Positions 1,776-62,729 of a stretch of 64,000 nucleotides of DNA are shown in pieces; position 1 is the first letter of the stretch, and each line of letters starts with the position of its first letter. The position numbers and the translations under genes are program-made. This DNA comes from Octopus vulgaris (Eukaryota): positions 52,266,001 through 52,330,000 of the forward strand of contig OX597821.1 in the NCBI GenBank assembly GCA_951406725.2, written 5' to 3'. The notes under the pieces are model-generated. The model saw only the letters and a program-made list of their open reading frames with translations, had not been told where the DNA came from and made no database searches.

Positions 1776-2188
1776 CACAGGAGTGGCTGTGTGGTAAGTA
1801 GCTTGCTAACCAACCACATGGTTCCGGGTTCAGTCCCACTGCGTGGCATCTTGGGAGAGTGTCTTCTGCTATAGCCCCGGGCCTACCAATGCCTTGTGAG
1901 TGGATTTGGTAGACGGAAACTGAAATAAGCCTGTCGTATATATGTATATATGTATATGTATGTGTGTGTGTGTGTTTGTGTGTCTGTGTTTGTCCCCCTA
2001 GCATTGCTTGACAACCGATGCTGGTGTGTTTACGTCCCCGTTACTTAGCGGTTCGGCAAAAAAGAGACCGATAGAATAAGTACTGGGCTTACAAAGAATA
2101 AGTCCCGGGGTCGATTTGCTCGACTAAAGGCGGTGCTCCAGCATGGCCGCAGTCAAATGACTGAAACAAGTAAAAGAGTAAAAGAGTA
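1776..2188 (+). mobile_element. tRNA-derived SINE, family S1, full length (empty LINE target site)
   Basis: Head CAGGAGTGGCTGTGTGGTAAGTAGCTTGC with A box TGGCTGTGTGG and B-box-like GGTTCAGTCCC, internal (TA/TG)n, tail (GTAAAAGA)n. Near-identical copies at 12526-12926 (-) and 56497-56863 (+). Confidence 0.9.
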
Positions 2189-12525: not shown

Positions 12526-12926
12526 TACTCTTTTACTTGTTTCAGATATTTGACTGTGGTCATGCTGGAGCACAACCTTTAGTCGAGCAAATTCACCCCA
12601 GGACTTATTCTTTGTAAACCTATTACTTATTCTATCGGTCTCTTTTGCTGAACCGCTAAGTTATGGGGACGTAAACACACCAGCATCGGTTGTCAAGCGT
12701 GTTGGGGGCCAAACACAGGTACACAAACATACACGCACATATATATATATACATACATGTATACGACGGGCCTCTTTCAGTGTCTGTCTACCAAATCCAC
12801 TCACAAGAATTTGGTCGGCCCGAGGCTATAGTAGAAGACACTTGCCCAAGGTGCCACGCAGTGGGACTGAACCCGGAACCATGTGGTTCGTAAGCAAGCT
12901 ACTTACCACACAGCCACTCCTGCGCC
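12526..12926 (-). mobile_element. SINE S1, full length (empty target site)
   Basis: Reverse complement of the 1776-2188 element, including head GGCGCAGGAGTGGCTGTGTGGTAAGTAGCTTGCTTAC and CORE-like ACCTTGGGCAAGT. Confidence 0.9.
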
Positions 12927-16854: not shown

Positions 16855-18066
16855 GAGGTGCATGGACTAGTGGTTAATGTGCTGCGCTCACGATCATGAG
16901 ATGGAGGTTTCGATTCTTAGTGCGTTAAGTTCTTGAACAAACCCATTTCACTTCACACTGTTTTGCGATCATTTCGCAGCAGACGTGTGACACATCGTAC
17001 GCTTCTTATATATATATATAGGAATATATATATATATATACACACCACCGCAGGAGTGGCTGTGTGGTAAGAAGCTTGCTTCTCAGCCTCATGGTTCCGT
17101 GTTCAGTCCCATTGCGTACCAGCTTCTGCAAGCGGCTATAGCAGAAGACACTTGCCCAAAGTGTCTTCTGCCTTAGCAGTGGTACTCAACCCGAAGCATT
17201 TGGCTGGAAAGCAAAATTCTTACAACACAACCACTCATGCACTAATATATATTTAAATAAAAGAAGATATACATATATATCTTTTATTCTTTTACCTATT
17301 TCAGTCGTTTGATGGTGGCCATGGTGGAGCACTGCCTCGAGGCGTTTTTTAGTTGAACAAATCGCCTACTGGACTTATATATATAAATGTATATATATAT
17401 ATAAATGTATATATATGTATGTGTGTATGTTTTTTAACCCTAGTACTTATTTTATTGGTCACTTATGGCAAACCTCTAAGTCGAGGGAAATAAACACAGC
17501 AACACCAGTTGTCAGGCGGTTATAGGGGGAAAAAGACAGACACAAAGACAGACAGACAAACAGACACACACGCGCGCAGAAACACACAAACAAACACACA
17601 CCCACAGAAATATAAATATAATTCTTTTACCAAATAAATTGCCCTTCATTGCCGAAGCTCCGATGAAGCTACAAGGTGATGGTATAGCTGAAACAGCTGT
17701 AGGCTAATCAAGTTCCTAAGATAATTCTTTATTCCTTGGTCATCTGATTTTCTTAGACACACACATTTGTAAGATTCCTCTTTATCTATAATTACCCAAC
17801 ACACACACATATATATATATATAAATATGCACTTATCTATATGTAAACATAAATACATATATATATATTTTATTTATTTATTTATAGGCAGAGGAGTAGC
17901 TGCGTGGTAAGTAGCTTGCTTACGAACGACATGGTTCCGGGTTCAGTTCCACTGCGTGGCACCTTGGGAGAGGTCGACCTAGGTGGAATTTGGAGGTAGA
18001 AATTAAAGCTGGAAGAAATGCAGAAGTATTTTCTTCAGGATGCTAACGATTGCACCAGCTCACCCC
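16855..18066. mobile_element. Cluster of partial SINEs (S3 head; S1 heads at ~17049 and ~17887; reversed S1 pieces 17132-17545; S2 piece ~17975-18066)
   Basis: Segments match the full-length S1, S2 and S3 copies in both orientations. Confidence 0.75.
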
Positions 18067-38783: not shown

Positions 38784-39436
38784 ACATGTACATGTGTATC
38801 GTGATTTTTCACAGTTGCCTCCTGCCAAATACGACGTGCAAGTTATTTTGTCAATCCTAACTTGCAGTATCTAATCATACAGTGGAGTTGAAACCAAAAC
38901 CAAGCGGTTGAGAAGTGAACTTTTAATCACACTATCATTAATCTTTTTCTTATTTTAAAGGGAGGGAAGGGTAATCACAGGGCCTCAGAGAGATATGATC
39001 CTCAAACTGGTGACCTGATTCAAATGATTTTAATAGAGTGTGTTCCACTAACAGAAGCAAAGAAGCAAGAAAGTAGTGTTAATATGGGTGGTGGATTAAA
39101 TCTATCAGTCAAGAATTCCATTACAGAATTTGAACAATTTTCCAGTGGAATTCGATCCGAGATTCTTATATTTATACTTATCCACCGACTTGCATTGGTG
39201 CTTATTTCATCAAACTCGGAGTGAGAAAAATGTTCACTCAACATAAACCGATAACTAGGAAGACGATTACGCCCCCAAACAAAAATTCCCACTGAACCAA
39301 AAAAAAAAAACAAACAGAATCCTACCTTACAATGGAGCTTCAAAACGTTTCAATTCGATACGGCTTCAATAGCATGTCTCACCGCTTCAGTGCCAAACAC
39401 AACACTGACTCGGACATGCGCAGTAGCAAGCTACTT

Positions 39437-41282
39437 TATTTCATAAAATTTCACCATTAAGGCGTTACATAAAGGGGACATACAAGGACAGACAAACATA
39501 TAGGGTGAAGTAGCTTAAAACGTTTTAGTATTTACAATATAATGGGTGCAGTATTTACAATATAAAGTTTACAAATTTAATATTACATAGTAGGGCAAGG
39601 AACCCAGTCATCTGGGTAGAACCTTTACTTCTTGATCCGGCCACACTTACCTGGTGCCAAAAATACCCAGCCTGCAAGCCACAGGCTTCCATCTATTCAT
39701 GAACATATCTCGTGACAGACACCTCTTCTCCAGCCTGATCTGGAGGTGGTAACTAAAAAAGTTAACCAACCCCTGGCCGGATACAAAGGTACCTGTCACT
39801 ATACCTTTCGTACGCGTCTTCCATACTGTTTCTTTCAGTATGGCTACTACGCAGGATAAACAAGCCTTCCTTTCCCTACTGAAGAAAGGAGGTGGCACAA
39901 TCTCAATGATAGACTCCGCTGATAGCTGTACTCTTCCACTCACTCACAACAGTTGTTCAACAAAAGCAATCAGTCCCGATAACTCCGGGCACTCCACGAA
40001 TGCATGCAAGACGGTTTCCCTATCCTGCTCACGTCGAGGACATGTCGGCGAGACGGCACTTCCGTGCCTTGACAGCTTGTCGCGAACAGGTATCGCCATA
40101 CGGAAACACTGCCAGGCCAGGGATTTCTGGTAATTATCCATATACCTCGGCCCGAACGTTCTCCAGAACAGGTTGACCAAGTGATTTTCATCGTAGCCCA
40201 GGGTCTCCCCCAAGGCGTCTTCTGATATAATTTCCACTAACCCGCTATAGAAATCCGCGGTGGAACTCCTGTTACCGGCGTTGCCCGCCCGAGAGAGAAG
40301 GTGGAGTGCCTGACGACACTCCAAGTGCCATTTCCTCAGTTTAGGTCTCCGCTTGAGCCATGCACCGGTGTCCGTTAAGGACGTTAACTGGGGATGTTAG
40401 AACCGAACGCGCGGTAACCACACCTGCTCTTCATCCAGGTAAAGCCAGAGGTGCCTCAACCGTAACGCGAATTTTCGCATCTTCAGCCAAGGCATCCATA
40501 TCCCACCCTTTAGCGGTTTCTGGCAACAGACAGAGCGCTTTACAAGTGGCTTTCCTCCTTTCCACAAAAAGCGGAAAAGGATTCTCTCCAAACGTGTTCA
40601 TCCACAAATCGTGGCAGGGCACCACGCTTAAACGGTAGGTGATTACTGATGCTACGAACATCTGCACCACCTCCGCCCTCCCTAGCAGAAATAACGCCCG
40701 TCCAGACCAGGTCTGGGTTCGAGCTGTCACCCTGCCGGCCACCTCAATCCAATATTTCTCTATCTGGAGGTCTGAACCAATCCAGACTCCGAGCAGCTTA
40801 ACAGGACCTTCCGTCCAACACCCCACGACGTTATTGAACGGCATCGTCTTGCCCCTCCAGGTGCCGAGTTGCAAACCTACCGACTTGTCCTTGTTAACCT
40901 TTGCTCCTGCCACCGCCTCGTAGCTTTTGATGGCCTCTTCCACCACTGGAAGCTGGCCTTCATCTGCCATGATGATGGAGATGTCATCCGCGTACGCCGT
41001 AGCTCCTCTTCCACACCATATATCATGCGGTACGCCCTTCTCCAACTTTCGCAGCAAAGGCTCAAGAGCCAACACATATAGAAGCGGGGACAGGGGACAT
41101 CCCTGACGATCTGAACGCCCGATCCTGAACGGCTTCGAAAAGAAACCGGTCACCTTGACGACAGACTCGATGTCGCTATACAAAGCAGCGATCCAACCTC
41201 GAAAGGTCGGGCCCAGGCCAGCCGCCTCGAGGACCGCCGCCAAGCACCGATAGTCGACTCTATCAAATGTCTTCGACTGGTC
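39437..41282 (-). mobile_element. 5'-truncated Tx1/L1-clade LINE, family A, inserted in an S1 SINE head
   Basis: RT from DQSKTFDRVD through RQGCPLSP and YADD, C-terminal region and 3' UTR, highly similar to 54620-56496. 16-bp TSD CAGTAGCAAGCTACTT (39421-39436) / CAGTAGCAAGCAACTT (41283-41298). Confidence 0.95.
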
Positions 41283-41318
41283 CAGTAGCAAGCAACTTAC
41301 CACACAGCCACTCCTACG
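41283..41318 (-). mobile_element. S1 SINE head (A box) interrupted by LINE A
   Basis: Reverse complement reads CGTAGGAGTGGCTGTGTGGTAAGTTGCTTGCTACTG. Confidence 0.9.
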
Positions 41319-43060
41319 TCTATTGGTAGGTTTATTATTCATATTTATTATTCAATAAACCTATTGGTAGGTTTATTATTCATAGACTCCTCCATGAATA
41401 TTATCAATCATATTATCTCAAGTAATTGCTTGCAAAATAATTCAGAAAGGACTAATGTATAAGATAGGAAATCGACAGAGCAGTTTGTATGAAATAAGTT
41501 GTTTAGCCAATCAACTACAGACTGAATCATGCCAATCTTAACGCTTGACTCGAAGTTTATAAATTTGCTACATTGTTTGTGCTACAGTTGAATCTTCAAT
41601 ATTCTTCATAGACTTATTTTCACCTAGTAGTTTCATTAACTCTCACAACGTTTATGCTACCACAGGACGTTGGTATCTCTCTGTCTTCACTAAACCATCA
41701 CTCTACCACTATATAGATATCTCAGTCAAGCACTTATATAATATACAAGTAATCTAGCAAATAAAAATCTCCTTCAACACCAGAAAAAAAAAACTTATAC
41801 AATAATACACAATACACACATACACATGTACACGTATACACGACATACGTTCATGCAATCGCACACACGTACACAGACATACACAGTAGAACTTTAGTGC
41901 ATTGGAAAGTATTCTCATGTTATCACAATCTTTCCAAATTTTAGTTCTAATGCTATTGGAGAGCCTCTTAGCAAAATATTAAACACATTAAATTCTTCTA
42001 GTCCAATACTTAAATACATCTTTCCCTGATTTAACATAAATACTTTATCATATTTTCCTCATACATATCATACTTAGACGAAGAAAAAATAACGCTTAAT
42101 TAATATTCACGCAATCTAATTTACCAACTCATGAAGATATATAGTTTCAAGAAATATATTTAGAATATTTCTAAACTGTTAGAAAAAACATTCTCATTAA
42201 TCGGTGATTGTCAACCAGTAAAATTGTTGTTCAAATTTAAACGAATCCTCCTAGGTTTCATTTAATATTCTCTTAAGGGAAGTAAGATGAAATTAAAATG
42301 ATTATGTTTGAATGTAAGACGCGTCATAGTGATATATTTTTTTTATCTGTGAGATTTTTGCTAGATACATTTTTAAGTTAATAAATTATGTCATGATAAT
42401 TTGAGACTAAAATAATAGCTTGCATAAAATAAATTGTCTAAAATCGCAAATAACTTTTTAAGATATTAAATGAGGATGAAAAAACGACCCTAGATGTTTA
42501 GTCTAAGAATGCCGAACACTTTAATTATGTTGTTCGCCTTTGATCAGATATGTTTTGCTGTCTATTTTGAACCAATTCAACTAAAGTTGTCGATTATCCA
42601 ACATAGAATTTAACTTTACACATATGCTGATTGAACCAAAATTTTATTTGGACTGCAATCATAAAAAGAAGTTTAATTTATATAATTTTCTGACTTTCTG
42701 GAAAATTATTAGTAATTAATATATTTATTTTCAATGATATCAATATTTACCAACTGTGAAACCTGTTGAAATTAGTCAGAGTGATTTCGCTCATCAACTT
42801 ACAGCACCTCACTAGAGTTTGTCCCCCAACAACACACAGCGCATACGCAGAAGTTTTTACTTGCATTACATATCCCAAAATTTTAAATCGACCCAATGTT
42901 CAAGGCGTCTATTTCCTTTTACATAAAACTAACCACGTTGCTGTAAAAATTTCTGCGGAAATCATACTGAAATCCCGGTTACAATCCCTGTTGCGATCAT
43001 TTCATTGTAGGTATGGAAAATTTAAAGATCAAGCATGTGTATATATATATATATATTTTT

Positions 43061-47773: not shown

Positions 47774-48005
47774 ATAATAATAATGATAATAATCTTTTCT
47801 GCTATAGGCACATGACCTGAAAGTTTGGGGAGGGGGCTATTCGATTACATCGATCCCGGTATTTTATTGGCACTTGATTTAACGACTCCAAAAGAATGAA
47901 AGGCAAAGACGACCTCGGCGGAATTTGAACTCAGAACGTAACGGCAGACGAAATACCGCTAAGCATTTGCCGCAGCGTATTAACGATTCTGCCAGGTCAC
48001 CGCTT
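47245..48005 (-). mobile_element. Tandem cluster of S2 SINEs separated by (AAT)n/(ACT)n
   Basis: Repeated GAATTTGAACTCAGAAC and TAGGCAC blocks at ~47245-47450, 47450-47636 and 47797-48005. Confidence 0.8.
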
Positions 48006-48057: not shown

Positions 48058-49969
48058 CCTTTCTTTGTTGGCCGCAAGGGCCGAACACAAAACATATAAA
48101 GGCAATAAAAAAACAAAGGGGCACAAGTGAAGCTTAAAACATAAAACGTATAACAAATATAACAAAAAAAAGACAACCCAGTTTACAAAAAGAAAAGAAA
48201 CAATAAATTTCCACCAGGGGCCAACCAGGCACCCCACACATCCTGGTCACTCCGAATGCCAAGGGCACGGCAGGTGGCACCCCTCTTCCCCGCAACGGCG
48301 TTGGTTTACAGGCAAATATTCAGAGTATTTTTCGCGAGCCATTTTTTCAATATTCACCCCATCTTATAACAAACTTACGGGGTGGGTGGAGTGGTCAGTA
48401 CTTCCTTCTCTACTCTCACTTTCCTTTTCAAGTTCCACTTGAGAAATGTCTGTATAGCAGCCAAGCAGAGAAAAACTGTCCCTCCCGACCAAAAGCAGGC
48501 AGCGGAGCGATTCTCACAATGGACTCAGCTGATAACTGGATCCGTCCTACACGTGGTAACAGCTGTTCGAGAAAGCTCCACAAGTCAGCAATGCACGGAC
48601 ACTGGACGAATGCATGCAGGACGGTTTCATCGCCTTGCGCACTCCTCGATCATGACCGTCTGAGAGCACTTCCGTGTCTGAAGAGCTTGTTTCGAACCAG
48701 CAGAGCACTGCCAAGCTAGGGATTTCTGTAAGTTATCCACAGGCGCCAGCCCGACATTCTTCCGTAAAAGACCATTTAGTTGATCCCTCTCGATGCCCAG
48801 AGTTTCGCCGAGTACGTCGTCGCTCTTTCCCTCGACTAATCCCCTATAGAACTCCATGTAGACCTTCCACCGACAGCGTTGACTGACTGGCAGAATACTG
48901 TGAGTGCCTGCCGACACTCCAAATGCCAAGTGCGCTTTCTTGGCCTGCACTTTACCCAGAACTAGTTCCGTCAATGAGACAAGCTACAATAAGTCCCGTT
49001 TGAGGAACGACGACCACACCTATTCACTGTTAAGGAAACCCTGGCGATGTCGCAGCCTCAGCGCATGTCTGCGCATCATTAGCCGCGGCATGCTCAGTCT
49101 TCCAGTCAGCGGCTGTTGACAGCCGATGGAACGTTTGAGGAGCGGAACACGTCCCTTTCATAGAACTCCCCCCAGTTCTTGTCCACCTCGAGGTCTGGAC
49201 CAAACCAGACCACGAGCAATTTAACCAGCCCTTATGTCAGCGCCCTTCAACGCTGTCGGCTGGTATGGACCTGCTTTTCCGGGTCTCCTCACTGCTCCTT
49301 TTTATCTCCCTGAGTGGTTCTGGGTCTTGCAGCGCACAGGCAGCAATCTACTAGATGTTTACATCTAGTGGTACAGCATTTAGCCTAATTCTCGTCGTTC
49401 TCTTCAAGAGGTAGATGAGATACAAGACCCTCTCCTCAGTCCACCGGGTCGACCTTGTGTGTCTTAGCGCGAGGTCCTCACTTTTAAAGAGAACTTCAAT
49501 GATGGCAAACTGCCTACCTCATTGTTTGTGAGTGACATCTATTAAAATTTCACTGAGTGTTTTCTCGCCGTGATTGATGGAAGCTATTTCCGATCTCCTA
49601 CTTTTTCGTGATACGCATTTAAAATACACTGCCTTTCTTTTTCGGGAGTTACGTGAACTGATGCCTTACTCCCGACAACTCTGATTTCTTTTGCTTTTGA
49701 AAGTTGTCGAATTTTGTCCACAAGGAGGATTGTAAACATATTTTTCTTTGTATTTGCTACATCAGCAAACCTCTAGTTTTTTCTTATTGTTTTTGTTGCT
49801 GATGTTGTTAACGTTGCTGATGTTGTTACTATTGCTGCTGCTGTTGCTGTTGGTGCTGATGGTGGCTGAGTTGTTGCCACTCTCCACACCTACGTCATCG
49901 CCTTCAATTGTAACATTATGTTCTCCGCTAAAATCGATTGCGTTCTGAATTGCGTTGCTGCTGCTGCTG

Positions 49970-50875: not shown

Positions 50876-51022
50876 AACAATAAATGTAACAATAACAACA
50901 ACAATATCACTCATTACGGATTGACACCTGAGGATGCAACACAACCCACAATGCATATCAACCGTTAAAAAAGATAAAGAGAGAAAAGATACATGACAAC
51001 TCCCACAACAATTCTAATTAAG

Positions 51023-51059
51023 TGCAGGAGTGGCTGTGTGGTAAGTAGCTTTGCTAACC
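51023..51059 (+). mobile_element. S1 SINE 5' head, split by LINE A
   Basis: GCAGGAGTGGCTGTGTGGTAAGTAGCTTTGCTAACC. Confidence 0.92.
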
Positions 51060-51448
51060 TCACTGACAGAAGAGTGACTTTGCCTACCGTACTACGGTTT
51101 GGACGCGTTTTCTTCCCGGTAAGAGTTTTGCTGTGTTGTTAATTGTTGAATTCGTACTACTGAAAATTTGCCTTTAAACGTTGCTGAACTGTCTTGTTCT
51201 CCGGTTTTACCGGGAAATAATTGAATAATTTCTTACCGTTGAACTGTTAGCTACTGTGGCTTTTTATTTACGTGACTATATATAGTCCTGCCAGACTATT
51301 TTCGTGCCCCTCCCCCGAATGGGGGTGGGAATTGGAATTTTTGAACTGCTTTTTTGAACTACTTTGGAAGAAAAACTTTCTATAGGTTTCCCAGTTTTGT
51401 GGGAAACCAATACTCGTAATTTTTGTGTTGTCTAATTTCAACAGAATA

Positions 51449-52848
51449 ATGCCTGTTGAAATTATTCACGAAAGTAGTGCTCTTGAGGAGAGCAATGTTA
51501 AAAGAATTTCTGAGGTAGCCGCGGTGGCTACCGAGAACATTGACATCGATGTCAACCAGCTCGTCTAGCTATTTAAAAGAATGCAAGAGGAGGGTGGTGA
51601 TGTTAAAATATCACCCTCCGCCAGTATCGTGGAGACCGAGAAGCGGACCGTAGTGTTTAAAACTTTCTGTCCACAAAGCAGAAGGTTCAAACACTTTGAA
51701 AAAAGCACCATCGAGAAATGCCTGTCCCCGATTTGGAAGGACATCGTGTACGTCGCCAGGGGACGGGCATATGGCACTGTGGATGTCCGCTTCTCGGGGA
51801 AGAAATGGCCCGCCGGCATTCTGTGAACCCCCTAAAAACCAAGGAGGTGGTACTTTTCCCAAGCTATAGGGGACGCAGGACGTCCCGGGTCAGGATTGTA
51901 GAAGCCCCACCGGAAGTAGATCCGGTAGAGGTAGTGGCCGCCCTGTTATATAAAAGGGCGGACAAAATAAAAATACTAGAAGTAACATGCTCTACCCCTC
52001 GATTTTGGCTCGGGCGTAACATTAATATATTAATTCAAGGAACAGCGGAGGACCTGCAGCTCCTTCCTGAGAGGGTGCTCGTGGGCGAGAACGTAGCCCT
52101 CAGGGTACAGGTCGAAAGCCGAAAACCCACCTGTTACGCCTGCGGCAAAAAGGGCCACATTCGTGTAGACTGTCCAGACAAGCAAAAGAAACCGCAGACA
52201 CCAGGCCCCTCAGATAATAAAAAAGTCCCTACCCTTGCAAACACACCTACCCCTACAAAAACAAAAAATCCCACTCCTGCTGTTACGGTGCCAACCCCAA
52301 AACAGACTGAAGAAAAAACCCAGCCCTCGCACTCACAAACCCCTACACTATTAAAACCTCCCACCCCCTAAAAACTGCGGCGCCTACCGAACAAACTATT
52401 GCTACCCCAGACGATACCATGGAGGTATCAGAGGGGGGATTTACACCAGTTCGTAAAAGAATTCGTGCAGCATCCCCGGCCACATCCCCTACAAAAAATA
52501 ATAAAAACAAAGACACACCACAGACACGGAAAAAAAATCCCGCTCAACTGGCCCAGAAAAAGAAGACAAAAAGAAAATGAACTCATATTAATTGAATTCG
52601 ACACACAAGACAAATACATAAACGATATTGTGGTTCAGCATCAGTCAGCAAGACTGTACAACAAATACAAAGATCGAAATAGACACGCGTGGATTGCGGA
52701 AACAACGTTCAAACAATTAAAAGACAGACACCGAAACGCCATCCGGCATATCGCGAACTTGCCGGACTATCTGAAGAAAGAGGAGAAAGAAAAGGCCCAC
52801 AAACGTGTGGTGAGGTCGGCCCCCACCTCTCCAACGAAATGTAAGTAG
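51449..52848 (+). pseudogene. LINE ORF1 (zinc-knuckle protein), disrupted
   Basis: ATG 51449, stop at 51566, frameshift ~51795 and probable further ones near 52365 and 52560. CYACGKKGHIRVDC is CX2CX4HX4C, followed by a Pro/Thr/Lys-rich linker. Confidence 0.85.
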
Positions 52849-52865
52849 AACTTTTACTTTTTGTA

Positions 52866-55800
52866 ATGGCTTCGCTTAACCTTGGTTGTTTAAATGTGCG
52901 TGGTCTGAGTTCGAAGTGGAAGCAGGCTTGTTTCCTCGACGACCTCAGATCACATGATATACATGTGATGGTTGCTACAGAGACCAAGCTGGACAGCCTA
53001 CAAACCTTCTCGCCTCTCCTGAATGGCTACGAGAAAATCATGTCTCCTGGCCAGACCGGAGGGCGAGAGGGCGTAGTGGTACTGATCCGTAAAGACTTGG
53101 CTCTACAGACAAGTACAGTCTATGTAGACCCAGAAGGTGGGCTGGTCGTCTTGATGTGACATACAGCAGTAAGGCCTTCAGGTTGATCGGACTCTATGCA
53201 CCTTGTGCTAGAGGTTTCCAAACTGATTTTTATCGGCGCCTAGAGGGCTTTCTCGTGACGTCGAAGACTTTAGTGATATTAGGGGACTTTAATGCTATCG
53301 TTGACGTACACATCGATAGCGTTGGCTCGATCTATAGGAAAGTGAACTCACGTCTCGTGGATCTGCTTAAGCGGTTTCAGCTAGCAGATCGTTACAGACT
53401 TGACCATCCGAACGTCCCAGAGTGGACCTGGATGAGTGGCGACGGAAGGTTCAAGTCTTATCTAGACAGGATAGTGATAAGAACTAGAGATAAGTCTAGT
53501 TTTAGTTGTCCACAGCTCGTCCAGGTGCCCTATACTGACCATAGAATGGTCACGTGTAGACTGGACATAGATAGCACACTTAAGATAGGAACCGGCTACT
53601 GGAAGCTGAACAAGTCTATTTTGACACGCGAGGCATACCGTAGCCGGATTAAGGTGTTAGTGCAGAGGGCGTTAACCGGAGCCGTGGTTAATAACCGGTG
53701 GTGGTTCACCCTCAAAAGAGCCATTCGATTCGAGTCCATTAGATTTAGTAAACAACTAAGACTAGATAGGGCTAGAATAGAAGGGCAACTAGTTAAGAAC
53801 TTAGAGGAGGCGTTGAGGTTGGGCTCTGCATCTCACATTTTAGCGGCGAGAACGGCATTAGACCGTCACCTCAAAACGAAACATGAGGGATGTAGAGTCC
53901 GGGCTAAAATACGAGCGTTGGGCCGTGAGGGAATTAATGTTGCCGGATGGGCCCGTACGATAGAAACACAGCGTGGAAACGATGCCACAATTGGGTCTCT
54001 TGTTGATGAAAACGGATGCACGATCAAGAAGCGGGACGAGATGTGTGAGGCACTTCACAAGCACTTCGCCGAGTTGTTCGGGAGGTGCGGGACGCTGGAT
54101 CATGGTGAGGCCCTTAGGGACTTCCTGTCTGGTGGCCCGCGCCTCTCGACACGAGAGGCTGAGTGCTGTGAAGGGCCAATCACAGCCGAGGAAGTAATCG
54201 AGGTGTTGGGCAAGTGCCCCGGGGAGAAGTCGCCGGGTCTCGATGGTCTGTCCCTATGAATTTTATAGAAGTATGCCAGACTTGTTCGGGCACCTGCTGG
54301 CTAGCGTCTACGCCAACTGGCAGCAGAATGGGAGAATTCCCAAGTCTGCGAGCCGGGGGGCGGTGACGTTGATCAGGAAGGACCCGAACAAGGGGGATGA
54401 GATAGGGAACTTCAGGCCCATAACTCTGTTAAACACAGAGTTAAAGATTCTGGCCAAGGTGCTAGCAAAAAGGTTGGCGCGGGTCGTGGACAAACTTGTC
54501 GGGGAAGCGCAAACGTGCGCTATCCCCGGCAGAACGATCCACGACAATCTCCACCTTATACGCTACTCCTTAGAGAGGGTGGGGAAGCTTTCTGGCGCAG
54601 GGGGAGCACTGGTACATTTAGACCAGTCCAAAGCATTTGATAGGGTCGACCATCGGTACCTGGCGGCGGTCCTCGGAGAGGCTGGCCTAGGCCCGACCTT
54701 TCGAGGTTGGATCGCTGCTTTGTATAGCGACATCGAGTCTGTAGTCAAGGTGAACGGTTCCTTTTCGAAGCCGTTCAGGATCGAGCGTTCAGTTCGTCAA
54801 GGGTGTCCCCTGTCCTCGCTCCTATACGTATTGGCTCTTGAACCTTTGCTGCGGAAGTTGGAGGCACTAGGGGGCGCGCCGCATGATCTATGGTGTGGAA
54901 GAGGAGCTACGGCGTATGCGGATGACACCTCCATCATCGTGGCAGACGAAGGCCAGCTTCCAGTGGTGGAAGAGGCCATCAAAAGCTACGAGGCGGTGGC
55001 AGGAGCAAAGGTTAACAAGGACAAGTCGGTCGGTTTGCAACTCGGCACCTGGAGGGGCAAGCCGATGCCGTCCAATAACGTCGTAGGGCGTTGGACGGAA
55101 GGTCCTGTTAAGCTGCTCGGAGTCTGGTTCGGGCCAGACCTCCAGATTGAGTAAAATTGGAGTGAGGTGGCCAACAAGGTGACCGCTCTAACCCAGACCT
55201 GGTCTGGGCGGGCGTTATCCCTGCTAGGGAAGGCGGAGGTGGTGCAGATGTTTATAGCATCAGTAATCACCTACCGTTTAAGCGTGGTGCCCTGCCACGA
55301 TTTGTGGATGAACACGTTTGGAGAGAATCCTTTTCCGCTTTTTGTGGAAAGGAGGAAAGCCACTTGTAAAGCGCTCTGTCTGCTGCCAGAAACCGCTAAA
55401 GGGTGGGCTAGGGATGCCTTGGCTGAGGATGCGAAAACTCGCGTTAAGGTTGAGGCACCTCTGGCTTTACCTGGATGGAGAGCAGGTGTGGTCGCCGCAC
55501 GTCCGGTTCTACCTTCCCCAGTTAACATCCCTAACGGACATCGGTGCATGGATCAAACGGAGACCTAAACTGAGTAAATGGCATTTGGAGTGCCGTCAGG
55601 CGCTCCAGCTACTATCTCGGGTGGGCAACGCCGGCAACAGGAGTTCCACCGCGGATTTCTATAGCGGGTTAGTGGAGATTAAGTCCGAAGACGCCTTGGG
55701 GGAGACCCTGGGCTACGATGAAAATCAGTTGATCAACCTGTTCCGGAGGACGTTCGGGCCGGGGTATCTGGATAATTACCAGAAATCCCTAGCCTGGCAG

Positions 55801-56268
55801 TGTTTCCGTGCGGCTTTACCTGTTCGCGACAAGCTGTCAAGGCACGGTAGTGCCGTCTCGCCGACATGCCCGCGATGTGAGCAGGATAGGGAGACTGTCT
55901 TGCACGCATTCGTGGAGTGTCCGGAGTTATCGGGACTGATAGCTTTTGTTGAACAACTGTTGTCAGTGATGGGAAGAGTACAGCTATCAGCTGAGTCTAT
56001 CATCGAGATTGTGCCGCCCCCTTTCCTTAACAGGGAAAGAAAGGCTTGTTTTTTCTGTGTAGTAGCCATACTGAAAGAAACAGTATGGAAGACGCGTACG
56101 AAAGGTATAGTGACAGGCACCTTTGTCTCCGGCCAGGGGTTGATTAACTTTTTTAGTTACCACCTCAGTAGCAAAATCAGGCTGGAGAAGAGGTGTCTGT
56201 CACGAGATATGTTTGTGAAAAGATGGAAGCCTGTGGCATACAAGATGGGTATGTTTGGCACCAGGTAA
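52866..56268 (+). pseudogene. LINE ORF2: APE endonuclease, reverse transcriptase and C-terminal CCHC, disrupted
   Basis: APE motifs NVRGL, ETK, GDFNA, LDR, TDH. RT motifs PGLDG, FRPITLLN, DQSKAFDRVDH, RQGCPLS, YADD. C-terminal CPRC-X8-H-X4-C. Frameshifts ~53155, ~54250, ~55317 and a stop at 55152. Confidence 0.95.
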
Positions 56269-56496
56269 GTGTGACCGGATCAGAAAGTAAAGGTTCTACC
56301 CGGATGGCTGGGTGTCCGTCCTTCGACATGATCATTAATATTTTTAAACATTGCCTTCGTAAAATTCATTGTTTATAATCTTATCCGTAATTTCATTCGA
56401 AAATTGTAACTGTGTTAAGCTACTTCACCCTTTATATTTGTCTGTCCTTGTTTGTCCCCTCTTTGTAAATGCCTAAATGGCAAATTATATGAAATA

Positions 56497-56863
56497 AAGT
56501 AGCTTGCTTACCAACCACAAGGTTCCAGGTTCAGTCCCACTGCGTGACACCTTGGGCAAATGTCTTCTACTACAGCCTCGGGCCAACCAAAGCCTTGTGA
56601 GGGGATTTGGTAGACAGAAACTGAAAGAAGCCTGTCGTATGCGTGTGTATATATTTATGTGTCTGCGTTTGACCCCCAATATCGCTTGACAACCGATGCT
56701 GGTGTGTTTACGTCCCCGTAACTTAGCGGTTCGGCAAAAGATACAGATAGAATAAGTACTAGGCTTCCAAAGAATAAGTCCTGGCGTAGACTTGCTCGAC
56801 TAAAGGCGGTGCTCCAGCATGGCCGCAGTCAAATGACTGAAACAAGTAAAAGAGTAAAAGAGT
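56497..56863 (+). mobile_element. S1 SINE remainder (B box, body, tail)
   Basis: Continues exactly where the head at 51023-51059 stops; collinear with 1795-2188. Confidence 0.93.
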
Positions 56864-57212
56864 CGCCTTTCTACAATAAAACATACAATACCAATCTCTC
56901 AACACTTACTCTATAGAATCGTCCCTAAACAATTGCACAAACCAGACAACTCGATCACCGCCCGGTTATATAACGCAGCACAAACAAACAAGCGCCTTGC
57001 AAAATATTGATCTAATAAACCTAACAATAACGGTCTAATAGTAATCAGATCCGAAACGCAATACATTAACATCTCAATCAACAAACTGAACCTCACAAAG
57101 AAGTACAACTGATGGAATATACACGCACAAAGCTACATTTGTAAAGGACAATGATATGTGTCAGCCACATAATGCTGTGCAATAGAAACTCGCATGGGGC
57201 AAGCGAACAGAG

Positions 57213-58793: not shown

Positions 58794-58840
58794 TTATCTA
58801 TCTATGTATCTATCTACGTATCTATCAATACTGTACACGT

Positions 58841-61101
58841 CTAAACGCGTCTTTCCCGTCCAGACAGGTTTTTCAGAGACCGAATCAGCACGTTAGTAAA
58901 GAGGGCCTTATAGATAACTTTAGGCCCATCACTCTGCTCAATGCAGACTTGAAAATTTAGGCCAAGGTGTTAGCCAAGAGATTGGCGCTTGTCATCGATA
59001 AACTGGTCGACAAGGTGCCAACCTGCGCCGTGCCGGGCCGAAGCATCCATGACAACCTCTATCTGGTACGCTACATCATAGACAAGGTAGCTAAGTAACC
59101 TGGCATGGGTGGGGCCCTGATCAATTTGGATCAATCGAAAGCTTTCGATAGGGTAGACCAGCGATACTTGGAGGCTGTCCTCAGAGCGGTTGGTTTATTG
59201 GTCTTGTCTTCCGCGGCAGGATAGCTGCTTTGTACAGAGGTAATGGACATCTATCGAGACCTTTCGACATTTCCCCCTCTCGTCGCTTCTATACGTATTG
59301 ACTCTCGAACCACTACTACGGAAGCTGGCGAATCTGAGGGGCATCCTGCGAGAACTGGAATGCGGGACGAGCGTGTCTGCATACGCGGACGACGTCACCG
59401 TCATAGTGTCTAGCCACGAGCACATCGAGCTGGTCGGCGAGACACTGAAAGACCACGAAGCGGTGACAGGAGCGAAAATCAACCGGGAAAAGTTAGTGGG
59501 CTTGCGGCTCGGCACCTGAAGAAGCAAACCCATGCCGTCCACCAGCGCCTCCGTCGTGGGACGCTGGACCGACGGTCCGGTCTAGTTGCTCGGGGTCTGG
59601 TTTGGTCCGGACCTCCAAATGGAGAAGAACTGAAACGAGATAACGAGTAGGGTGGTCACTCTCGCTCGGCAATGGGCCGAGAGGAAACTGTCCCTAAAAA
59701 GTCGGGCGGAGGTGGCGGACACGTACATTGCCTCCGTCACCTACTATCACCTGACCGTCGTGCATTGTCCCTACCCTACCATCACCAAACTAGAATGCAT
59801 TCTCTTCCGCTTCTTCTGGAAAGGATTCGTCCCAATGGTCAGGCGATCCATATGCTGTCAACACCCGTTAAGAGGAGGGCTAGGCATGCCGTAGTTGATG
59901 ATACGCAGACACGCGCTGAGACTGTAACATCTCCGGCTCTACGTAGACGATGGTGAACAGGTATGGTCGCCGTTTGTGAGGCACGTTTTCCTGCAGCTCG
60001 TCTCCATGACCGAACTGTTGTCGTGGATTAAAAAGAGGCCGAGGAAGGGCAAATGGCACCGCGAGTGTCGCGTTGTTCTCAAACAACTATGCCGTCCCGG
60101 GTCGACCTTGAGCGACTTCAACACAACCAAACCATTCTATAGGGGATTAGTGGAGGGGAGATTCGACGACGATCTCGGGGCGAACCTGGGCGTCGACGAA
60201 GAATGCCTGGCCCGCCTGTTCAAGACGACTTTCGGGCCAGGACCTATGGACAACTTCCAAAGATCCCTGGCCTGGCAGTGCTAACGAGAAGCGCTACCCG
60301 TTCAGGATAAGCTATACAGACACGGCTCGAGAAACACGGTGTCGACTTGGCCGAGATGCGGTCAGAGCGACGAAACCGTTCTGCACGCACTCGTGCTGTG
60401 TCTAACCATTTCCCACATGTGGGCTTATGTCAAACGACTGCTGTCACGTGTAGGACGAGTCGCTTTATCAGTCGAGTGTATTGTCAATATCATCACGCCT
60501 CCTTCCTTCAAACGGAAAGGAAGAGATATTTTCATCATACTTGTGGCTATGGCGAATGAATGTATCCGGTGGACGCGTCTGAAAGGATTAGAGACAAACA
60601 CTTTCTTCTCTGGTCAACTTCTCATCAACTTCTTCAAGTATCCCTTGAAAAGGAAAGTGAGAGAGGCAGGTTTTTGTCTAGCGAATGTTTCAAAAAAAGA
60701 TGGGTGAATGTAGCAAGGATGGCATGTATGAATGACGAAGCCACCTTGAGTATGATCCTATGAACCCGAAAAAATTTAAAACAGAGGGTTACTTACTTGC
60801 AAATAAATGTGTTAGCATGTAACATTATTGACCGAGATTACCGTGGTCTTTTCCGTAGGCTTTTCTTTCAATGGATAAACCTTATCTGTTTCCCTCTTTA
60901 CACTTTACATCATGACATTTCTGTGATACACGATCCCTATGGATGTTTTTTTTTTTAATATTTATTTTAATTTCTTTCTTTCTTTTTTACGATCCGTTTT
61001 GATCGAAAACCTACCCTACATTTTTTCCTCCCCAAAAAGAAAAGCTCTACTTTGTAATTTGTCCCGTCTGTGTTCAGCCCTGTGTGGCTAATAAAGAAAT
61101 A
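58841..61101 (+). mobile_element. 5'-truncated Tx1/L1-clade LINE, family B
   Basis: DNFRPITLLN, DQSKAFDRVD, YADD, DNFQRSLAWQC, many stops. Perfect 18-bp TSD TATCAATACTGTACACGT (58823-58840 / 61102-61119). Confidence 0.93.
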
Positions 61102-62729
61102 TATCAATACTGTACACGTAACTACAAACACCAATCACTTGCTACATGTGCACAGCCCTCTTAAAATGATCCACACGCCTACAAAAACCTACTAATAAGA
61201 GCGGAGCGCCATACACACCAACATTTTTAAACTGTATACACTTATAATTTGCGCTTACACACACATACACACACACACATACACACAGACAGACAGACAC
61301 ACAGACACACAGACACTCACCTATTATCTACTTGACACACACCAATCATCCACAATTCAAGAACACTCTCACATTCTACTCATACAATACCGAGTATAGA
61401 AATACACTGGTCCTAAATCCCCCACAAAACTGTTTCATTGAACACGCTTATCTGAGTTTGACACAGGCATCAGCTACACACACACATATACACACACACA
61501 CTTACACACACAATCACATAAGACAGTAAGAAATCACACTTAAACACATACACACATATAATTAGGCACACAGTTGTCCAATTACCAGACACACAGGCAA
61601 ACCAGTTAGACAGTACAGTATACTCGTACACAGTAACTTCATACGCACACAAACACACACATATGCTTAATTCACAGTTGTCTTCCTCGCCACACATTCC
61701 TAGAGCGATCCTCCTAACATTTCTGGTGATTTCAGCATGGCTTCTCCGTTCTGTTCTCTCCGTGTCTATCGTATTTTTTAGAAGAAGAGTGACTACTCGA
61801 AATCTAAATGTCATTTCCTCCTTTTCTCCCATTTTTTTAGTGTTAGCCTAGCACTCAAATACTTTCTCTCACCACGGTATGCATACATCATTGTGAAAAG
61901 TAAGACCTATTCACACTTGTACACGATATCTCAACACCTAGTGCCAAAATCCACTGTCTCGACAGAAGCTCTCAGCCATCAATCAGCAAATGGAACAAAC
62001 AGCCTGAGACGGCAATCAAGGACATATCGGCTAACAGTAGACTATAGTTTTCTTGTTGAAATGCAATAAACCAGTAAATGGATGAGTGCTTTTATTAATT
62101 CTCTATCGGGGTTACTTGTGTTACTATTTATTCCCAGCTTAATTCAGATCCAGTCGACCCGTTATCTGAGTCTTTCCAGCCAAGACCAATCGGTGTTTAT
62201 TCAAGCATATAACTACAACTACATTATTCAATGTGATCATAAAAAGATGTGATTTGATCGAGATTGTTTTTAATGTCTAGCTAATGGATGGAATAATTGC
62301 TAATATTAAACATAAATTATGAAATAATAATGAGTCACTGGCATCTCAGCTTCGAGTAGCACAAAATATTTACAGCATTAACTATGTGAATTACTTGTCC
62401 TATAGAGTTAATACAAAACCATCGTGCTTTTACTTTTTCTTATATACCTTGGCACTTTCTCGGTTTGGAAGGGAGATCTAGTATTTAACTGTTGATGGGT
62501 TTGATATCCTCTCGTCTTAGAAATTTGAGCCTAATGGATTTACCAAATGACAGATGAAATACGTCAATAATAAAAAAAATCGAAAATAACTGGAGTATTA
62601 TAGCTTGAAGAGGTATTTAATACTAAGTAGTTTAAGTAGTTTACAATGAAACACTAAGGAATAAAGTTTAAAGTATGCTTAGGATGTAAAATTGTTTTAG
62701 AGTGGAAGTTATGAGGTTATAACCTTTGG

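Follow-up and report, generated by a model that had tools for sequence, protein, structure and literature searches.

Insertion into other transposons is an established trait of the Tx1 clade of long interspersed elements (LINEs). Passages of PMC4494074 describe Tx1-clade elements that target DNA transposons, long terminal repeat (LTR) elements, U2 genes, and microsatellites, together with SINEU passengers and tandem insertions; Tx1L is found in Tx1D (piggyBac), Tx1-Mar and its SINEU passengers in Mariner-N4_AMi, and Tx1-9_AMi in Harbinger. Likewise, parts of PMC3706591 place Dewa in the tRNA-Leu spacer, Keno in U2, Mutsu in 5S, and Dada DNA transposons in small-RNA genes, and the relevant passages of PMC5035012, PMC8869645, PMC3706591, PMC5911963, and PMC3747384 give rRNA, tRNA, small nuclear RNA (snRNA), microsatellite, telomere, and transposon sequences as known LINE targets. 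Here we describe a young L1/Tx1-type LINE family (family A) that almost always inserts at one base of a tRNA-like head of a short interspersed element (SINE). It was recognized in a window of 64,000 nucleotides of Octopus vulgaris DNA (assembly GCA_951406725.2, contig OX597821.1, positions 52,266,001 to 52,330,000 of the forward strand) and followed through a genome of 2.8 Gb in 227 contigs.

Family A resembles Tx1L, Tx1-Mar, and Tx1-9_AMi, as presented in the passages of PMC4494074, in being a LINE with an apurinic endonuclease (APE) and a reverse transcriptase (RT) that has a fixed target in an abundant repeat and a target site duplication (TSD) of about 16 bp. It also resembles the Tx1 systems of that source in forming tandem insertions that sandwich the TSD, in sharing its target with nonautonomous passengers, and in having related groups that prefer microsatellites, as Kibi and Koshi prefer (TC)n and (TTC)n. 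Unlike in the Tx1 systems, a SINE head serves as the target, and about 97 to 98% of the listed copies are inserted at one base of it; the site fidelity reported in PMC4494074 is 90% for SINEU-3 and 13 to 23% for the other SINEUs. In contrast to what the same passages portray, full-length copies here carry a target-like leader and the passengers encode an ORF1 protein of their own, whereas SINEUs are snRNA-headed SINEs.

At the window locus a full-length family A LINE of 5,437 bp (51060-56496, plus strand) cuts the SINE at GGCTGTGTGGT^AAGTAGC, the insertion point lying between 51042 and 51043, which bears out the claim of the earlier note that a full-length LINE splits a SINE just after its A box. 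Upstream of the LINE, 51022-51042 (plus) hold the 5' portion of the split head with its A-box-like TGGCTGTGTGG (51031-51041), and the SINE resumes at 56497-56863 (plus) with the B-box-like GGTTCAGTCC (56528-56537), the body, a dinucleotide run, and a tail ending in AAGAGT repeats. The LINE has no poly(A) tail and ends in ...GAAATA, shortly behind a hairpin (TGCC-TAAAT-GGCA; 56470-56482, plus; CGCC/GGCG in an older subfamily) that is common to the LINE and its passengers. ORF1 (51449-52848, plus) is gag-like with a CCHC zinc knuckle and measures about 466 amino acids from the first ATG in open-frame copies; ORF2 (52866-56268, plus) comprises an APE endonuclease, an RT, and a C-terminal zf-RVT and measures 1140 amino acids in such copies. 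The window copy itself is broken by indels and stops, with 8 gaps and 59 substitutions relative to an open-frame copy, and its broken frames match zf-CCHC, Exo_endo_phos, RVT_1, and zf-RVT in a domain search. Its flanks are unequal, a 17-mer AAGTAGCTTTGCTAACC at the 5' side versus a 16-mer AAGTAGCTTGCTTACC at the 3' side. The TSD of about 16 bp claimed for this locus therefore needs qualification: the 3' 16-mer (56497-56512, plus), downstream of the putative nick, is target-born, but the 5' junction (51043-51059, plus) is a hybrid of about 9 target-derived bases followed by a LINE-borne, target-like leader TGCTAACC (51052-51059), and hence no true duplication.

Genome-wide, the specificity suggested by this single locus holds. 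The last 167 bases of the LINE yielded 423 candidates, the best 40 of which all scored 100% identical, and in 30 of 30 fetched loci the 3' end was followed by AAGTAG. An exact 21-base tail pattern matched 116 times (114 in the run with flanks shown); among the matches listed, 98 of 100 family A ends continued with AAGTAG, in a tally made by eye in which two rows were accepted despite a one-base change at the junction. Among the 98 ends, 89 lead into the SINE body and 7 adjoin the 5' terminus of an element that resided at the site beforehand, the remaining two being L141, where the body is lost, and L143, a non-SINE site. Likewise, all 30 fetched full-length 5' ends were preceded by a SINE head (28) or a passenger tail (2). 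The exact 34-base empty target site occurs 57,068 times, and even if 200,000 sites are assumed the chance of hitting one is about 4e-5 per insertion, against the 98 of 100 observed. Most independent copies thus share one site and one orientation and carry a TSD, as target-specific non-LTR retrotransposons characteristically do, and the pattern extends to elements with shared tails and to 13 of 13 older relatives (see below).

The second copy in the window (39437-41282, minus strand) is 5' truncated inside the RT and occupies, in a different SINE head (41299-41320, minus), the identical base, with its own TSD of 16 bp (41283-41298 and 39421-39436; 15 of 16 bases identical). The earlier note had assigned both copies to the same family at the identical nucleotide; the nucleotide and the separate TSD are confirmed, but at 88.8% identity to the window family A LINE, and 90 to 91% to loci L185/L191 versus 88% to family A, this copy represents an older subfamily. 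The two are independent insertions rather than one duplicated insertion. Downstream of the second copy lies not a SINE body but a 5' remnant (about 160 bp; 39278-39436, minus) left by a family D element, an ORF1-only passenger already present at the site when the second copy inserted. The preinsertion state is visible in empty SINE copies at 1776-2187 (plus) and 12526-12926 (minus; our reference for the target profile) and in empty heads at 17049-17131 (plus; an AAGAAG variant) and 17887-17968 (plus; partial); the heads that we located at 1781, 12919 (minus), 17054, and 17894 match the positions previously proposed. Locus-specific 16-mers are duplicated by the truncated copies L090, L143, and the second window copy, from which it follows that the second strand is cut up to 16 bases away.

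A tRNA origin of the target SINE is suggested by its A- and B-box-like motifs, a 47-base span from D-loop to B box equal to that of tRNA-Asp genes, and a cloverleaf-like fold; neither ARAGORN nor Rfam called a tRNA in its head. It may belong with the octopus SINEs of the OK/OR type, which it resembles. It was sought in the supplement of PMC5804259 and not found there, and the passages of PMC4758252 on octopus SINE domains contain nothing on targets. Like Dewa, Keno, Mutsu, and Dada (parts of PMC3706591) and TRE5/TRE3 near tRNA genes (passages of PMC5911963), family A uses a multicopy target of the RNA polymerase III (Pol III)/small-RNA kind that is safe to hit, but those elements hit functional genes or spacers, whereas the target here is a tRNA-like parasite. 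Within the site, bases +1 to +6 are 93 to 100% conserved in 68 filled sites versus 75 to 97% in 40 empty ones. The non-SINE site L143 keeps only the AAGTAGCTT core (about 9 bases) and has a perfect 16-bp TSD, and insertions in arrays retain both sides of the target site. The AAGAAG variant of the SINE was found in 0 of 98 family A targets versus 6 of 32 empty heads (p=0.00015, with a small background and SINE age as a confounder), and two older passenger tail types occupy it in 15 of 17 rows among the matches listed; its avoidance by family A would fit a shift in specificity or simple timing. As to a possible preference for a GCTAACC subfamily, it accounts for about 63 of 97 listed family A targets, as judged by eye, versus about half of the exact-match listing and 6 of 40 in the loci.

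Genes read as tRNA-Asp share GTGGT^AAGTA, 10 bases across the site, and the B-box spacing with the SINE (most of 100 listed, from 159 matches). In response to the earlier question whether real tRNA genes are hit as well, we found no insertion: a LINE tail joined to a tRNA-Asp start gave 0 matches, and there was none among the listed flanks, a comparison of low power because about 150 genes stand against more than 57,000 SINE sites. Tandemly arrayed tRNA-Asp-like genes, more than 30 copies with a 158-bp period, are located at G000:C5:51.22-51.30 Mb. Comparison of the target SINE with both the LINE and the passengers revealed no similarity, nor does it share a tail with the LINE, so that the SINE is not a passenger of this LINE. 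The proposal that insertion disables the SINE applies to each copy hit but is negligible for the SINE family, since some 800 to 1,000 insertions face more than 57,000 perfect empty sites, an occupancy below 2%.

The 5' junctions were analyzed in 38 paired full-length copies, five loci without an intact 5' start being left out. Their targets fall into 19 with GCTAACC at bases 10 to 16 and 18 without; L075, with a 17-base target, was excluded. When the target carries GCTAACC, the duplications are identical in 15 of 19 cases. In contrast, none of the 18 mismatched targets was copied, and 16 of these 18 leaders end in TAACC (13 in GCTAACC), which implies about 8 target-like bases on the full-length RNA. 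Target sequence gives way to leader between bases 9 and 12 (L064, L082, L085, and L089), and an extra base at the junction is present in 11 of 18 mismatched versus 3 of 19 matching targets (p=0.007). In other words, the apparent 5' TSD of full-length copies is a hybrid whose last 5 to 8 bases are carried by the LINE and not copied from the target. This is reminiscent of R1 and R2, for which, according to passages of PMC2718515, target sequence at the RNA's 5' end has been proposed to anneal and prime second-strand synthesis. R1 of Drosophila 28S ribosomal DNA (rDNA) is likewise an APE element, with a 14-bp TSD, and forms arrays as it reinserts into the TSD that borders older copies on their 5' side. 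R1 and R2 differ in that they belong to another clade and use homogenized rDNA, whereas the SINE target is dispersed and mutating, and the leader here matches the distal half of the duplicated segment instead of upstream sequence. One sequencing contig, under a second organism label, spans the SINE head into the LINE (51024-51614), a hint from a single record.

The site is shared with elements that contain ORF1 only. The passengers D, E, F, and G measure 1.5 to 2.26 kb between TSDs and encode just an ORF1-like protein; a search for ORF2 in them gave no hit, the configuration known from HAL1 (half-L1). The family D remnant behind the second window copy has 176 candidates genome-wide, and all 20 fetched family D 5' ends are preceded by a SINE head (18) or a LINE-type tail (2); three copies on C28 and two on C29 are local duplicates. 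Similarity between passengers and LINE at the nucleotide level is limited to the last ~35 bases, which hold the hairpin. A degenerate pattern for this shared tail matched 805 times, and 97 of the first 100 matches lie at the SINE-head site, the other three representing a second site in the same SINE, a 6-base core, and an unrelated sequence. In locus L164 (G000:C1:32371245) a passenger occupies a second near-cognate site with an AAGTG start, about 60 bases further into the same SINE. Passengers and LINEs are combined in mixed arrays such as head-F-D-F-A-body (L150) and head-D-A (L142); three A copies follow one another on C9, an A copy on C1 is preceded by six successive D-type junctions, and a passenger array spacing of about 2.0 kb recurs seven times among the matches listed.

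Passenger and LINE ORF1 proteins are homologous (28%, E 1e-20; range, 27 to 39% identical). The passenger proteins are farther from family A than is a sister LINE found at (CT)n, with 42% identity, and form two separate lineages outside the LINE clade in the ORF1 tree. Their identity and position rule out that passengers are internal-deletion copies of family A. The ratio of nonsynonymous to synonymous substitution (Nei-Gojobori) is 0.10 to 0.42 in 53 of 54 computable pairs and 0.69 in one, 12 of 66 pairs being saturated, and by these ratios passenger ORF1 is under purifying selection. A weak RRM_3 match in passenger F (E 0.001) is below the cutoff. Directly behind the junction, passengers D, E, and F (L150, L147, and window positions 39420-39400) have a GCGCATG-type palindrome, which may be a promoter motif of the NRF-1 type. 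The first bases of passenger G are also those of the autonomous subfamily L186, which suggests that 5' ends have been exchanged. Passages of PMC5753468 and PMC5537684 describe similar ORF1/Gag-only, nonautonomous non-LTR elements, HAL1 and HeT-A, of which the latter occurs with its RT donors TART and TAHRE in mixed head-to-tail arrays and has a conserved gag. Unlike these, the passengers insert at an internal SINE site and not at random or at chromosome ends.

The LINE itself has the domain organization of L1/Tx1-type elements. ORF2 matches PF03372, PF00078, and PF13966, that is, an N-terminal APE, an RT, and a C-terminal zinc finger, and ORF1 matches PF00098, a gag-like CCHC knuckle as in ORF1 of this type; Atlas neighbors of ORF1 are CCHC and ZCCHC3-like proteins at 0.91 to 0.93, which we regard as a lead only. 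The best relative of solved structure is L1 ORF2p (PDB; E 1e-66 versus 2e-19 for R2). Protein searches returned none of the named Tx1 proteins Tx1L, Keno, Kibi, and Dewa, and the RT tree contains relatives at about 40 to 63% identity and limpet and fish proteins at about 30%. Assignment to the Tx1 clade would thus fit the architecture, the behavior, and the L1-type best hits, in a tree without named Tx1 references. The limpet and fish proteins of clusters P0085 and P0105 are related ORF2 proteins whose locus tags run consecutively along a single contig, a hint that other target-specific LINEs may lie in tandem arrays. Most family A copies are 97.5 to 98.9% identical to the window copy, and ORF2 is open over 1140 to 1150 codons in 7 of 40 whole loci, three of which have an open ORF1 as well.

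Among 148 scored matches to the RT, 17 were fetched at 78 to 94% identity and 16 at 71 to 76%. Of the closer set, all 13 with a 3' end sit at the SINE site; the other four have no 3' end, and one of these has a SINE head at its 5' end. In the more distant set seven end at (CT)n, two at (ATT)n, two have varied flanks, and five share a common downstream sequence. In the latter loci (L208, L209, L212, L216, and L217; RT 71 to 72%) the same sequence follows an AATAAA-like tail in 5 of 5, representing either a longer 3' untranslated region (UTR) or another fixed target. An IQ-TREE phylogeny of 55 RT segments, midpoint rooted, with support from the Shimodaira-Hasegawa-like approximate likelihood ratio test (SH-aLRT) only and with the fragmented window families B and C left out, places the SINE-site elements in one clade (SH-aLRT 97) inside a genome-specific radiation (100). 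The endonuclease (EN) domain is 85 to 96% identical in four full-length matches within this clade (74% in a frameshifted partial match) but shares only 57% identity with the EN of the (CT)n sister, a lineage with 76% identity in the RT. Its catalytic motifs are kept, and its hairpin loop reads MSGDGRFK versus ARNDGSSR in the sister. Sister lineages carry comparable 3' hairpins, as assessed by script on a set part of which was chosen with a hairpin-containing pattern.

Taken together, we consider it very likely that an L1/Tx1-type lineage with an APE reading GTGTGGT^AAG(T/A)AGCTTG 3' of the SINE A box, accompanied by passengers that borrow in trans, accounts for these insertions. The APE would nick the SINE head at GTGTGGT^AAGTAGCTTG, and target-primed reverse transcription would begin at the bottom-strand nick, and the RT would recognize the 3' hairpin, which is conserved. 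Being complementary to the leader, the end of the cDNA could then anneal to the 16-base 3' overhang and prime the second strand, overwriting target bases and slipping by one base where leader and target mismatch. The junction sequences show a fixed 3' junction without poly(A) as well as reinsertion at the same point in front of earlier copies, which builds the head-to-tail arrays. The two old ORF1-only lineages keep the hairpin and their own ORF1 and may borrow ORF2 in trans, and the SINE would serve as a renewable and harmless landing pad that family A does not mobilize.

Other explanations account for part of these data. Conceivably, pairing between RNA and DNA sets the priming position, with transcripts reading through into the downstream SINE and a fairly relaxed endonuclease; the absence of poly(A), a 3' junction that is exact in nearly all copies, the target sequence available for read-through behind every copy, and the RNA-target pairing already apparent in the 5' leader agree with this. 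We nevertheless think it improbable, because sister lineages whose tails are built alike have kept targets of their own and EN domains that have diverged, the site in L143 matches over about 9 bases only, and the AAGAAG variant is avoided though it differs in few bases, with the reservations on background and SINE age given above. It is considerably less probable still that host Pol III factors on the A and B boxes tether the LINE, in the manner of TRE5 or Ty3, independently of DNA sequence. The A box of a tRNA-like head immediately precedes the site, and passages of PMC5911963 report an L1-clade element that depends on TFIIIB/TFIIIC for its targeting, but the precision is that of a single base and not of a window. 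Moreover, filled sites are hit again with the B box kilobases away (L150, L142, and an array at C1:223.69-223.71 Mb), L143 has the same core outside a SINE, and tRNA-Asp genes with canonical boxes and GTGGT^AAGTA showed no joined tails in a comparison of low power.

Could the SINE pieces instead be part of the retroelement, as a composite or through 5' or 3' transduction, with no targeting involved? The same SINE does flank nearly every copy on both sides, and part of the 5' junction is truly element-borne. The downstream SINE flanks, in contrast, are on average 92.7% identical pairwise (range, 84 to 99%; 27 loci, 130 bases), while the adjoining LINE is 98.7% identical (median) and the tails of the best 40 of 423 candidates are invariant. 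In 37 of 41 filled sites base +13 agrees with a subfamily mark located in the SINE body, locus-specific variants recur in both halves of the TSDs of truncated copies (L090 and the second window copy), and the unrelated elements A, D, E, F, and G are found in alternation within a single head-body pair. The 3' flanks come from the target and are not cargo, and this genomic-like variation largely refutes a composite or transduced origin, to which we attach very little weight. Least plausible of all is that one insertion was multiplied by segmental duplication or that random insertions survived only inside SINEs. A few local duplicates exist, those of family D on C28 and C29, but almost every large contig carries copies, whose outer flanks are unrelated and whose truncation points differ, which refutes duplication, and no survival bias can hold insertions to a single base in one orientation.

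Several observations weigh against the preferred account of an APE-directed LINE with trans-borrowing passengers. The counts come from exact patterns and top hits, which favors young copies, and 2 of the 100 listed ends (L139 and L140, short fragments without LINE body) are off target. Upstream of L001/L098 the SINE head is missing, in L002 two target bases are deleted and there is no TSD, and the junction of L092 is trimmed. The endonuclease is presumed to be the source of specificity from its role in other LINEs. The leader may arise either at the transcription start or by processing; Rfam gave no ribozyme match near the gathering score in 50900-57000, and the sequencing contigs, in which the family is present in all four runs examined, cannot show RNA ends, strand, or level. 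Finally, since their ORF1 is only 27 to 39% identical to that of the LINE, the passengers could have an unseen autonomous partner. No longer or fused relatives of passenger ORF1 were found, which is weak evidence.

The neighboring LINE families behave differently. Family B, represented by a truncated copy at 58837-61103 (plus) with a 16-bp TSD beside a (TATC)n array, has about 3,150 candidates genome-wide, and about 11 of 20 sampled loci end at (TCTA)n; none of the 20 has its end at the SINE-head site, in agreement with the claim that this family inserts elsewhere. A family C remnant (about 48060-49800, minus) adjoins an (ATT)n array, and its tail resembles the (ATT)n-associated lineage L214/L215. 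A second SINE, with a head in the window at about 47880-47990 (minus), has a variant tail that closely resembles the LINE 3' UTR including its hairpin (L134 at G000:C14:67653873-67657079, L002, L037, L123, and L202). About 12 of 18 such LINE-like tails in fetched loci are followed by the head of this same SINE, at one of two fixed points, forming arrays, and in L103 such a tail is followed by the target site of the first SINE. This SINE may be either the passenger of a second SINE-targeting LINE lineage or a dimeric SINE.

In conclusion, near-absolute, clade-wide specificity for a SINE head is real in this family, which works like Tx1L or Tx1-Mar crossed with R1 and HeT-A. Targeting of transposons by Tx1 elements is already known, but a SINE target was not found described: literature searches, which covered neither Repbase and Dfam nor the supplements of the octopus papers, returned no SINE-head-specific LINE among the papers listed, and the passages located in PMC13282606, which lists 13 recently active L1-Tx1 families, PMC8967140, and PMC9115989 count L1-Tx1 families with none on targets. 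Not recognized in the earlier note, and new, are the passengers limited to ORF1, the formation of arrays, and the 5' leader that the LINE carries. More tentatively, and with less than even confidence, one may picture a guild on one SINE, with an endonuclease that tracks the turnover of SINE subfamilies, a self-renewing leader to guide the priming of the second strand, long-lived passengers under purifying selection, and perhaps a second LINE-SINE pair. In such a guild the passengers might possibly either parasitize the ORF2 of the LINE or supply ORF1, as HeT-A does for TART, though we hold this, too, with some doubt. If the guild reading is true, SINEs would be a general and so far undescribed class of safe harbor, in a chase between LINE and SINE.

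The list of LINE targets is thereby extended to SINE heads, with near single-base fidelity at about 1,000 dispersed loci. Slight differences from target to target let the junctions show which bases derive from the target and which from the RNA, a distinction hidden in homogenized rDNA. Passengers that share the site of their helper provide a second system, beside HeT-A, for asking why nonautonomous elements keep ORF1. A practical warning concerns repeat libraries, in which these LINEs and the SINE will be fused. Since sisters with RTs 71 to 76% identical differ in target and open-frame copies exist, gain or switch of APE specificity becomes testable. The lineage is a natural model for how a DNA-nicking enzyme becomes sequence specific and may offer a natural tool for site-specific insertion in this group of animals.

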